Source: Escherichia phage vB_EcoM_PTE-Eco09. Taken from it: 64,000 nucleotides of DNA. The notes beneath the pieces were generated by a model. The model did not search any database. It was not told where the DNA came from and was given only the letters and a program-made list of their open reading frames with translations. A program made the position numbers and the translations under genes. This document shows, one piece after another, positions 33,903 through 35,965 of this stretch. Every line of letters begins with the position of its first letter. Position 1 is the stretch's first letter. Location of the stretch: sequence record PQ306574.1, one strand, 5' to 3'.

Positions 33903-33912
33903 TTTTTCATCA

Positions 33913-33946
33913 AGCCAATCCGAAAAGGGTTGGCTTTTTCTTTTTA
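33913..33946 (+). terminator. Rho-independent terminator
   Basis: AGCCAATCCGAAAAGGGTTGGCT hairpin followed by TTTTTCTTTTT. Confidence 0.65.
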
Positions 33947-33988
33947 TGATGTTATGATGTAATCTCTTAATCAATTGAGGGTTTAATT

Positions 33989-34687
33989 ATGCATACAATG
34001 GTTAAAATGGTCTTCGGATCTCACTTATACGGCCTTGATACTGAAAACTCCGATAAAGATTATCGTGGTATCTTTGTTCCGACTGCGAAAGAAATTATCT
34101 TAGGATCGATGAAAGAACACTATGATCAAAGCACTAGCGGTCAAGGGATCAAGAACACCAAAGACGACATTGACGTTAATATGTTCAGTCTAAAACGGTT
34201 TATCAATCTGGCATGTAAAGGCGATATCGGCGCTATTGACATGGTGCACGCTCCTAGTAACATGTTGATTGAATCCTCCAGAGAATGGGAATACATCCGA
34301 ACACATCGCGATAAATTCTATCATGTTGGGATGTGTGGTTTGTCTGGTTATCTCAAAAAGCAGGTAGCAAAATCTGAAAAGTATTTCAGTAACTGGAAAG
34401 ATCTTTCTCATGCTCTGCGTGTTGGTTATCAGCTACTTGAAATCTATCAGACAGGTGATTTACAATTCCCGCTCGCGCGACGTTCTTCTATTTTAGCGTG
34501 TAAGTTAGGAGAAAGAACCTTTGATAATGTGCGGGAAGAATTGAAAGATCTCTACGAGCGTGTTAAACTCGCTCGTGAAGAGGCAAAGAAAAACGGTATG
34601 CCGGAAGAACCAGATGTTGACTTTTGGAAAGATCTATTAGAATATATTCATCTGACAGTTGTTCTGGAACACTATACCCGTGGTTAG
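33989..34687 (+). CDS. Pol-beta-superfamily nucleotidyltransferase-like protein
   Basis: N-terminal GSHLYGLDTENSDKDYRGIF matches the GS-x(9-11)-DxD nucleotidyltransferase signature; helical C-terminal half. Confidence 0.55.
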   Translation: MHTMVKMVFGSHLYGLDTENSDKDYRGIFVPTAKEIILGSMKEHYDQSTSGQGIKNTKDDIDVNMFSLKRFINLACKGDIGAIDMVHAPSNMLIESSREWEYIRTHRDKFYHVGMCGLSGYLKKQVAKSEKYFSNWKDLSHALRVGYQLLEIYQTGDLQFPLARRSSILACKLGERTFDNVREELKDLYERVKLAREEAKKNGMPEEPDVDFWKDLLEYIHLTVVLEHYTRG

Positions 34688-34708
34688 TTAATATAGGAGA
34701 TTAAGAAA

Positions 34709-34903
34709 ATGAAAGTTTATACCAATAGTAATAAAGGACAAGATATTACGCCCGGAAAGATGTATGATTTTACCCCGACACGAGACGACGAAAATCCACC
34801 GACAATCGGTTACATCAAAGATGATATAGGTTATCGTATTACGATCCTTCTTGATGGTGGATGTTCTCATCTTCGCGGTGATCGTTGGGAGTTAGTACCA
34901 TGA
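34709..34903 (+). CDS. Small paralog family member A (64 aa)
   Basis: TAGGAGA RBS; motif IGYIKDDIGYRITILLDGGCSHLRGDRWEL shared with the next two ORFs. Confidence 0.5.
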   Translation: MKVYTNSNKGQDITPGKMYDFTPTRDDENPPTIGYIKDDIGYRITILLDGGCSHLRGDRWELVP

Positions 34904-35145
34904 TGTATGTGATGACACCTTATAGTAACCGCAGGTATATTACACCAAATACACTGTATGAATATACACCACATGAAAGATTTGCGAATAGTGGTTATAT
35001 CCGTGATGATAAGGGACACCAGATTTTTATTTGTCTTAAAAATTGTGCACACTTAGACGGTCGAACATGGACACTAATCGAAGAACCAAAACAACCTGAG
35101 AATAAAGGTCTTTGGAACGCAATTAAAAAAATCTTGAAAAAGTAG
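34900..35145 (+). CDS. Small paralog family member B (81 aa)
   Basis: ATGA overlap; GYIRDDKGHQIFICLKNCAHLDGRTWTL. Confidence 0.5.
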   Translation: MMYVMTPYSNRRYITPNTLYEYTPHERFANSGYIRDDKGHQIFICLKNCAHLDGRTWTLIEEPKQPENKGLWNAIKKILKK

Positions 35146-35173
35146 TTGACACAACAAAACGGGGGTAGTAATA
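35146..35173 (+). promoter_or_regulatory. Early promoter module with stem-loop over the -10 box
   Basis: TTGACA-N16-TAATAT; inverted repeat GGGGGTA/TACCCCC (35161-35180). Confidence 0.55.
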
Positions 35174-35202
35174 TACCCCCATCGAAACAAAGGAGTATTA
35201 AA

Positions 35203-35538
35203 ATGAGTATTAAAGAAGTGTTTGTTTATACCGACTATGACGGGTGCGCCTATCTCACTGCTGGAAAACTTTACCGTTGTGAGATTATTCATGGTACGCT
35301 AGGTCGAATTATGTGCGATCCTATTACAAAATTGTGGAAAAATAATCCTAGTGAGCGAGAAACTCTTATTAACCTAGATCCAGACGGTTGTTCACATTTG
35401 GACTATAGAAAATGGCATATCGTGACACATGATGCTTATGGTATTCATCTTGCTACTAAAGAATTAACTATAGAGAAATTCAAGTTTAAAGAAATCCCGT
35501 TTGTATACTGGCTTCGCAATTTGTTTAAGAAAGGATAA
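35203..35538 (+). CDS. Small paralog family member C (111 aa)
   Basis: ATG after the promoter and AAGGAG RBS; DPDGCSHLDYRKWHIV motif. Confidence 0.5.
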   Translation: MSIKEVFVYTDYDGCAYLTAGKLYRCEIIHGTLGRIMCDPITKLWKNNPSERETLINLDPDGCSHLDYRKWHIVTHDAYGIHLATKELTIEKFKFKEIPFVYWLRNLFKKG

Positions 35539-35542
35539 TAAA

Positions 35543-35965
35543 ATGGAAACAATTAACGTACATGTTCGCCGTAGTAAGCTGCGTAGATTCTTCGAAACCG
35601 AAATGCGCAAAACCAATGCGCAGATCAAAGAAAAGTGCTTGAATGATGGTTATGGTGAGTATATTTTCATTCGCTTTAGTCCGCATATGATCGACCGTCT
35701 AACCGATCGTCATATCGATGAACATAAGACAATGGAACTATTCAATAAGATAGAAACTCGTTTGCCGGAGATCTTCGACTTCCTGAAAATGGAAGACCGA
35801 CCTAATCGATTAGAAATTACTGACGGTAACATGTGGATCGGGATGACAGTAGACCTAATTGAAGACGGTAAGCCATATCACGGTCTATGCTGCCGAATGA
35901 TTATAGAGAATCCAAAACGACTGGCGGGTAAAATGTCGGCTGTTGTTTTGAAAGTTGACCAATAA
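35543..35965 (+). CDS. Hypothetical protein (140 aa)
   Basis: ATG with AGAAAGGA RBS. Confidence 0.5.
   Translation: METINVHVRRSKLRRFFETEMRKTNAQIKEKCLNDGYGEYIFIRFSPHMIDRLTDRHIDEHKTMELFNKIETRLPEIFDFLKMEDRPNRLEITDGNMWIGMTVDLIEDGKPYHGLCCRMIIENPKRLAGKMSAVVLKVDQ

Follow-up and report, generated by a model that had tools for sequence, protein, structure and literature searches.

Three small open reading frames (ORFs) stand in tandem on the plus strand of the DNA analyzed here, a 64,000-nucleotide stretch of Escherichia phage vB_EcoM_PTE-Eco09 (PQ306574.1), referred to below as the window, whose numbering is used throughout. An original prediction made from the letters alone had singled them out as paralogs sharing a C-terminal motif, and both the ORFs and the peptides it quoted are present as described. 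ORF1 (34709..34903) encodes 64 amino acids and consists of a bare domain with the predicted fold of an SH3-like β-barrel. ORF2 (34900..35145) encodes 81 amino acids, with the barrel in residues 1 to 62 followed by a putative basic amphipathic C-terminal tail (LWNAIKKILKK). ORF3 (35203..35538) encodes 111 amino acids, with a barrel in residues 1 to 83 that carries an extra hairpin and a loop insertion, then a linker and a predicted C-terminal helix (FVYWLRNLFKK). Between ORF2 and ORF3, on the same strand, lies a sequence element of the PeSL (promoter-early stem-loop) type (35146..35180), an early promoter cassette that combines a promoter with a stem-loop. The array is bordered by two conserved genes, nrdC.11 on the left and regB on the right.

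The window is from a Krischvirus, an RB49-like T4-type coliphage, and the 2.2-kb stretch around the three ORFs shares 97 to 99% identity with 58 genomes of this genus, RB49, Phi1, JSE, GEC-3S, and FL37 among them. The ORFs are annotated as coding sequences in RB49, Phi1, GEC-3S, and about 55 other Krischvirus genomes. Their RB49 counterparts are ORF097c (ORF1), ORF096c (ORF2), and ORF095c (ORF3), all annotated as "hypothetical protein" and located between nrdC.11 and regB. Each gene has a GGAG Shine-Dalgarno sequence, at 34696 to 34699 for ORF1, at 34888 to 34891 for ORF2 (8 nucleotides upstream of its ATG), and at 35192 to 35195 for ORF3 (7 nucleotides upstream of the ATG at 35203). A mechanical ORF call begins ORF2 at a TTG (34885), but the ATG at 34900, which overlaps the ORF1 stop codon as ATGA, is the preferred start. 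Downstream of nrdC.11, ORF1 and ORF2 form a translationally coupled pair.

Paralogy, protein family, and predicted fold

Pairwise BLASTP comparisons connect ORF1 with ORF2 (E = 1e-12, 40% identity over 63 amino acids), ORF1 with ORF3 (E = 3e-4), and ORF2 with ORF3 (E = 0.002). Profile searches cross-match in the same way: phrog_6261 detects ORF1 (3.6e-28), ORF3 (1.1e-37), and ORF2 (9.5e-6), and phrog_15978 detects ORF2 (2.2e-60) and ORF1 (1e-7). As a control, a hidden Markov model (HMM) built solely from 33 non-Krischvirus relatives scored ORF1 at 68.7 bits, ORF2 at 77.8 bits, and ORF3 at 48.3 bits, while the best of 6,000 shuffled sequences reached 12.3 bits. These three lines of evidence bear out the predicted paralogy, and the shared motif is statistically supported in alignment. 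The likeness covers the whole domain of ~60 residues, extending beyond the C-terminal motif first noticed, and comprises an N-terminal Y-[LI]-T-x-G-K-x-Y motif, a D-D-x-G turn, and the C-terminal C-[AS]-H-L-x-G-x-x-W motif. All three proteins have the T, Y, C, H, L, and W of these motifs. Departures from the signature are a D for the first Y in ORF1, N-T for G-K in ORF2, and the absence of D-D-x-G from ORF3, which is due to the loop insertion. That the motif is a chance resemblance or that the ORFs are not genes, a notion that has only their small size in its favor, is refuted by the present data and has a negligible probability. Profile scores of 48 to 78 bits stand against no more than 12 bits for shuffles, 58 genomes keep the ORFs with a nonsynonymous-to-synonymous divergence ratio (omega) below 0.3, the AlphaFold2 models are confident, and correctly spaced GGAG sequences precede all three ORFs. 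An HMM scan of the 64-kb window found no further family members.

ORF1 to ORF3 belong to a large uncharacterized phage family, PHROG 6261/15978. All three proteins and all 42 sampled relatives match phrog_6261, and ORF2 represents the core of phrog_15978; both entries are labeled "unknown function," and the three proteins do not differ from them in kind. When 1.84 billion cluster representatives were searched exhaustively with HMMER, 498 proteins were returned at E ≤ 1e-3, each the representative of a 50%-identity cluster and mostly single-domain proteins of 58 to 72 amino acids. The family signature reads, in order, Y-[LI]-T-x-G-K-x-Y, I-x-D-D-x-G, and C-[AS]-H-L-x-G-x-x-W. Over 223 aligned domains, the most conserved positions are Y19 (100%), W56 (98%), K17 (94%), and T14 (93%), followed by D36 (90%), C48 (87%), and H50 (87%). 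Other signature residues are conserved to a similar degree: the G of G-K in 88%, the I before x-D-D in 90%, the G of D-D-x-G in 82%, and the L of H-L in 89%. Stand-alone members are mostly acidic, with a median isoelectric point (pI) of 4.7 and 69% below pI 5; the barrels of ORF1 to ORF3 have pI values of 5.1 to 6.8.

Multidomain members comprise two- to three-domain fusions (P0016, P0017, P0021, and P0126) and fusions to other small phage domains. The fusion partners were set aside as a functional clue, since DUF3850 is the sole significant one; a Tad2-like match (PF11195) in P0049, a member with a C-terminal extension, is subthreshold, with 20.4 bits against a cutoff of 25. The C-terminal extensions of four other members (P0066, P0089, P0076, and P0062) share a recurring motif of the "W...YRIKP" type. 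Two further candidate relationships were rejected. Pfam DUF6501 (PF20111) matches 4 of the 42 relatives weakly and below threshold (best E, 0.0017) and none of ORF1 to ORF3, and matches of FosA families to ORF3 residues 42 to 63 (35326 to 35391) score at most 19 bits against cutoffs of 180 to 305, a chance resemblance to a DPDG β-hairpin. A literature search for ORF1 to ORF3, the PHROG identifiers, and DUF6501 found nothing.

Among cultured phages, the family is found in Krischvirus, in Vibrio myophages of ~135 to 141 kb, and in a Klebsiella Jedunavirus. Among the loci scanned, single copies occur in a Vibrio myophage (record of eugene 12A10; the same protein is named from helene 12B3), in a Klebsiella Jedunavirus, and in three metagenomic phages, ruling out tandem arrays as a family-wide trait. 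IMG/VR added just one locus. A tblastn search of cultured phages with P0016 gave no match, and one with the family consensus recovered only 22 Vibrio phages.

The predicted fold of ORF1 to ORF3 is an SH3-like β-barrel. AlphaFold2 models ORF1 with a predicted local distance difference test (pLDDT) score of 91.2 and the ORF3 barrel with ~90. The fold is a small five-stranded barrel whose last strand follows a 3-10 helix. The D-D-x-G motif falls at the predicted distal hairpin turn and probably has a structural role. In ORF3, a low-confidence linker (residues 86 to 103) leads into a modeled helix (residues 100 to 109). A fold search of BFVD retrieved only uncharacterized viral proteins. Sequence identity to known SH3-like folds (eukaryotic SH3, KOW, bacterial SH3b, and the integrase C-terminal domain) is 2 to 20%. 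Canonical SH3 features (the ALYDY motif, the WW dipeptide, and the PxxP-groove Pro/Tyr of the 3-10 helix) are absent from ORF1 to ORF3, which have no SH3 match in Pfam. The likeness to SH3 domains is one of fold only and does not demonstrate common ancestry or proline-peptide binding.

One structurally characterized phage protein invites comparison. Gp54 of Escherichia phage Bas11 (PDB 9axb) is a small, nonessential β-barrel protein of unknown function that triggers CapRel-SJ46 and has a six-stranded barrel without a 3-10 helix (PMC11578894). It comes from an unrelated siphovirus, lacks the family motif, and shows 6% identity and no sequence relationship by profile search; nothing indicates that ORF1 to ORF3 trigger CapRel.

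The tails of ORF2 and ORF3 appear to be basic amphipathic helices. Their hydrophobic moments are 0.78 and 0.65, respectively, compared to 0.57 for the membrane-targeting helix of FtsA scored alike, and their net charge is +3 to +5 with a pI of about 10.

Promoter cassette, allelic variation, and selection

Directly after the ORF2 stop codon, a −35 hexamer (TTGACA, 35146 to 35151) and a −10 hexamer (TAATAT, 35169 to 35174) are separated by a 17-nucleotide spacer, and a stem-loop (GGGGGTA-GTAATA-TACCCCC, 35161 to 35180) overlaps the −10 element. The same promoter is annotated in GEC-3S. Given the promoter, the hairpin, and this annotation, the earlier claim that the third copy has its own early promoter holds at the sequence level; the element is also kept in the sister lineage described below. 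With an A/T-rich upstream region, σ70-like −35 and −10 hexamers, a G/C stem-loop, and an intergenic position before a small ORF, the segment from 35146 to 35180 has the makeup of a PeSL. The ORFan-associated PeSL cassettes in the hyperplastic regions of RB49 and phi1 (Arbiol et al. 2010, PMC2839356; Comeau et al. 2014, PMC4122927) have the same layout, including the downstream GGAG-ATG. Promoter and terminator activities of PeSLs were shown by lacZ fusions on copies other than this one (PMC2839356), and the main text of that report is silent on ORF095 to ORF097. A mobile ORFan cassette has a PeSL on each side, whereas ORF3 is flanked by a single one.

The arrangement TTGACA-N17-TANNNT occurs 13 times in the window, compared to an expected 1.2, and 11 of the 13 are on the plus strand. 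Four copies (26662, 35146, 48169, and 49079) contain the PeSL core AAAYGGGRGTAGTAAnATACYCCC, and two others (28474 and 44269) have a different GGGGA/TCCCC stem between the hexamers. Upstream of nrdC.11 are a terminator-like hairpin (33912 to 33936) and a promoter-like site (33930 to 33958). Since no signals precede ORF1 or ORF2, the layout indicates that nrdC.11, ORF1, and ORF2 most likely form one transcription unit, with nrdC.11 first.

Comparison with other lineages points to an ancient duplication. In a metagenomic sister lineage (L023 to L025), RlaP is followed by genes of 64, 80, and 100 amino acids and then by RegB. Nucleotide identity to the window is ~90% in the flanks, 58 to 85% in ORF1 and ORF2, and 35 to 50% in the ORF3 barrel, rising to 95% in the ORF3 tail. 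No segment of the locus diverges more than the ORF3 barrel, which has the PeSL on one side and the conserved tail on the other; shuffling associated with PeSLs would be expected to give this pattern. A third lineage has RlaP and then two proteins, one of 68 amino acids (59% identity to ORF1) and one of 87 amino acids (45% identity to ORF2) whose tail is basic and contains Trp, like that of ORF2. Thus, both of these more divergent lineages retain an ORF1-type gene followed by an ORF2-type gene, and one of the two has the full set of three. Each copy resembles the gene at the corresponding position in the divergent lineages more closely than it does its own neighbors, which rules out recent in situ duplication. 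The array is old and positionally conserved, not a recent expansion with fast turnover.

Copy number varies between lineages. Between full-length RlaP and RegB, a distant T4-like contig (L027) has six family domains distributed over five ORFs. Contig L026 (45 to 296) carries an 83-amino-acid fusion of ORF1 and ORF2 with the crossover inside a shared stretch of ~20 to 25 nucleotides, GGTTACATCAAAGATGATAAAGG, and the 30 nucleotides upstream of the fusion also differ from the 3′ end of nrdC.11. Because the crossover lies in a shared stretch and the upstream sequence differs, the fusion is probably a natural recombinant between paralogs, the alternative being an assembly chimera. T4 itself has three small early ORFs (vs.3, vs.4, and vs.5) at the same position, between vs.6 and regB. 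They were rejected as homologs, as they have no HMM match at E < 10 and look α-helical by eye.

To describe variation within the genus, five genes were extracted from 20 annotated Krischvirus genomes and the window. Ratios of nonsynonymous to synonymous diversity (20 to 21 genomes) are 0.277 for ORF1, 0.254 for ORF2, and 0.160 for ORF3, compared to 0.029 for nrdC.11 and 0.062 for regB. Against the sister lineage, omega is 0.24, 0.27, and 0.17 for ORF1, ORF2, and ORF3, respectively, and 0.05 to 0.13 for the neighbors; nonsynonymous divergence (dN) is 0.19 to 0.52 for the three ORFs and 0.04 to 0.06 for nrdC.11, regB, and vs.1. All diversity ratios and omega values are below 1, indicative of purifying selection, which is relaxed in ORF1 to ORF3, with constraint 3 to 9 times weaker than in nrdC.11 and regB. 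Synonymous divergence of ORF3 from the sister lineage is saturated, suggesting allele replacement.

Within this overall constraint, discrete alleles are found. ORF1 exists as two haplotypes (IKDDIGYR and IEDDAGFR), and its nucleotide identity falls to 85 to 88% between flanks of 96 to 99%. JK32 and SSG23 share a very divergent ORF2 allele (78% nucleotide identity). Common ORF1 polymorphisms (positions 2, 11, 24, 29, 37, 40, 42, and 59) are located in predicted loops and at the ends of strands and spare the invariant residues. The diversifying selection proposed for the array therefore stands in one part only: the locus is a local hot spot of divergence with divergent alleles, but the gene-wide ratios, all below 1, do not show positive selection. 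What the array shows is allele replacement and recombination between paralogs under purifying selection.

Two isolates provide natural knockouts: KFS-EC has a stop codon at Q41 of ORF2 (L015, 1089 to 1334), and FL04 has a 14-nucleotide deletion in ORF1 (L019, 1401 to 1581). ORF3 is present at ≥95% identity in 58 of 58 records and at full length in the 50 matches listed, and none of 21 translated ORF3 sequences contains an internal stop. On these sequences, ORF1 and ORF2 are individually dispensable in isolates, and ORF3 is intact wherever it was examined.

The end of ORF3 has a pattern of its own. Its last ~50 nucleotides (35486 to 35545; tail KFKFKEIPFVYWLRNLFK) match the sister lineage at 95% identity, and the tail region overlaps the ribosome-binding site of regB. 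Either strong selection on the tail or a recombination boundary inside the gene, near the regB ribosome-binding site, would produce this conservation.

Possible roles of the array

The array is of an ordinary kind, namely, small accessory paralogs in tandem in a hyperplastic region of a T4-type phage, and the evidence shows neither positive selection nor a specific activity. In the explanation we favor, the barrels of ORF1 to ORF3 would be small binding modules expressed early in infection. Their conserved T/K/Y and C-x-H-L/W residues would form a surface that binds one conserved host component, expected at the face of the RT loop and 3-10 helix that SH3 domains use for their ligands. A conserved ligand, rather than variable targets, is suggested by the strong conservation of the polar motif across ~500 clusters from phages of different hosts. 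The variable loops and the different C termini may give each copy a distinct subfunction: ORF1 has no tail, and the predicted basic amphipathic helices of ORF2 and ORF3 could lead their barrels to membrane or nucleic acid. The net role would be a nonessential one in host takeover or counterdefense and not in core replication. The descriptive part of this explanation (homology, fold, locus, promoter cassette, selection, and dispensability) is close to certain; the whole, including the mechanism, is evenly balanced between right and wrong.

Several observations weigh against the mechanism or leave it without an anchor. Scans of ORF1 to ORF3 against Pfam, NCBIfam, and PADLOC matched no family, and the PADLOC defense-system models gave no match among the three proteins. 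A PDB profile search returned only insignificant matches (best E, 0.022, to DsbC), so that similarity to solved structures exists at the level of fold and not of sequence. The clustering of conserved residues on the SH3 ligand face is read from predicted secondary-structure positions, and the ORF3 tail is modeled with low confidence (pLDDT, 39 to 49). Overlap with regB translation initiation can account for part of the nucleotide conservation of that tail. Phages other than the T4-like ones carry one copy each, in unrelated genomic contexts that offer no clue to function, and the literature search found no experimental data on any family member.

Could the copies be inhibitors, each matched to a host target that varies (for example, a polymorphic defense or surface-associated protein), in an array kept in fast turnover by diversifying selection? 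ORF1 to ORF3 are indeed the fastest-evolving genes of their neighborhood by dN, with discrete divergent alleles (the two ORF1 haplotypes and the JK32/SSG23 allele of ORF2), common ORF1 polymorphisms in predicted loops, an ORF3 barrel that is essentially replaced in the sister lineage, and a copy number that varies by lineage, from the fused gene of L026 to the six domains of L027. However, gene-wide omega is 0.16 to 0.28 in every comparison, and the copy order is kept across lineages at 45 to 73% amino acid identity, meaning that the copies are long-lived orthologs. The invariant polar residues, shared by phages of Escherichia, Klebsiella, and Vibrio, also argue for a conserved ligand. We therefore consider tuning to variable targets unlikely.

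A role linked to RNA, in which the barrels act as KOW/Sm/Tudor-like nucleic-acid binders working with NrdC.11 and RegB, for example, in early-mRNA processing or RNA repair, is somewhat more doubtful still. Most stand-alone members and the barrels of ORF1 to ORF3 have pI values on the acidic side (see above), which does not favor nucleic-acid binding, and no linkage to RlaP or RegB is found outside T4-like phages. T4 has the unrelated helical vs.3 to vs.5 at the regB-proximal position, implying that RegB does not need the barrels. Less probable again, and by a clear step, is a metal-binding, redox, or catalytic miniprotein in which Cys-x-His, together with the conserved Asp or Lys, forms a metal site or a nucleophile/base pair. 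The high conservation of C48, H50, D36, and K17 would suit such a site, and so would a second Cys at position 10 in about one-third of members and the four Cys residues of ORF3. Yet 11% of domains have Ser in place of the Cys, and there are natural members with Phe, Tyr, or Trp at the His position, among them the JK32-type ORF2 (CAYL) and the L023 ortholog of ORF3 (CVYL). These replacements are easier to reconcile with residues that pack the 3-10 helix than with an indispensable metal or catalytic site; moreover, D-D-x-G is probably structural, and no similarity to any enzyme was found.

A bolder form of the favored binding-module explanation would make the family, whose ~500 clusters come from phages of several Gram-negative hosts, an unrecognized class of phage effectors. 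With its invariant T/K/Y plus C-x-H-L/W site, the family would recognize a single conserved target in the bacterium or a small molecule, for example, an immune signal, a metal, or a cofactor, and the three to six copies next to regB in T4-like phages would each cover a different target variant or location, amounting to a new antidefense or host-takeover family. We regard this as improbable, on a par with the RNA-linked role.

The small early ORFans of T4-type phages hold many host-interaction functions that are still unknown. Three such "hypothetical proteins" can now be placed in a single large family whose signature is clear, whose fold is predicted with confidence, and whose locus is conserved. 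The natural knockouts (KFS-EC and FL04), the allele series, and the domain fusions make the family tractable for functional screens. It is a reasonable target for functional work, although the finding itself is unsurprising.

Neighboring genes and their annotation

The right border of the array, regB (35543..35965, plus strand), encodes the RegB endoribonuclease and matches Pfam REGB_T4 (PF10715) at 1.5e-48. GenBank records of G2248, 011D4, Skers, and JK32 call ORF3 itself "putative endoribonuclease/RegB," for which Pfam gives no backing; ORF3 has no REGB_T4 match, and the assignment was rejected. The left border, nrdC.11 (33989..34687, plus strand), encodes an RlaP-family nucleotidyltransferase of 232 amino acids (Pfam RlaP) and carries the label "glutaredoxin nrdC" in FL37 and FL38, likewise without Pfam support.

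An HNH/NUMOD4 homing-endonuclease gene is inserted between vs.6 and nrdC.11 in JK32, MIZ4, FL04, JSE, and one metagenomic relative (at 69 to 667 in L017, L018, L019, and L022 and at 2463 to 3059 in L033). It is absent from RB49, Phi1, GEC-3S, and the window, where 33903 to 33988 is intergenic. The NrdC.11 protein of Krischvirus matches positions 24 to 198 of the 249-position RlaP profile; at 232 amino acids, it is ~100 residues shorter than the T4 protein (336 amino acids) and the L027 homolog (338 amino acids).

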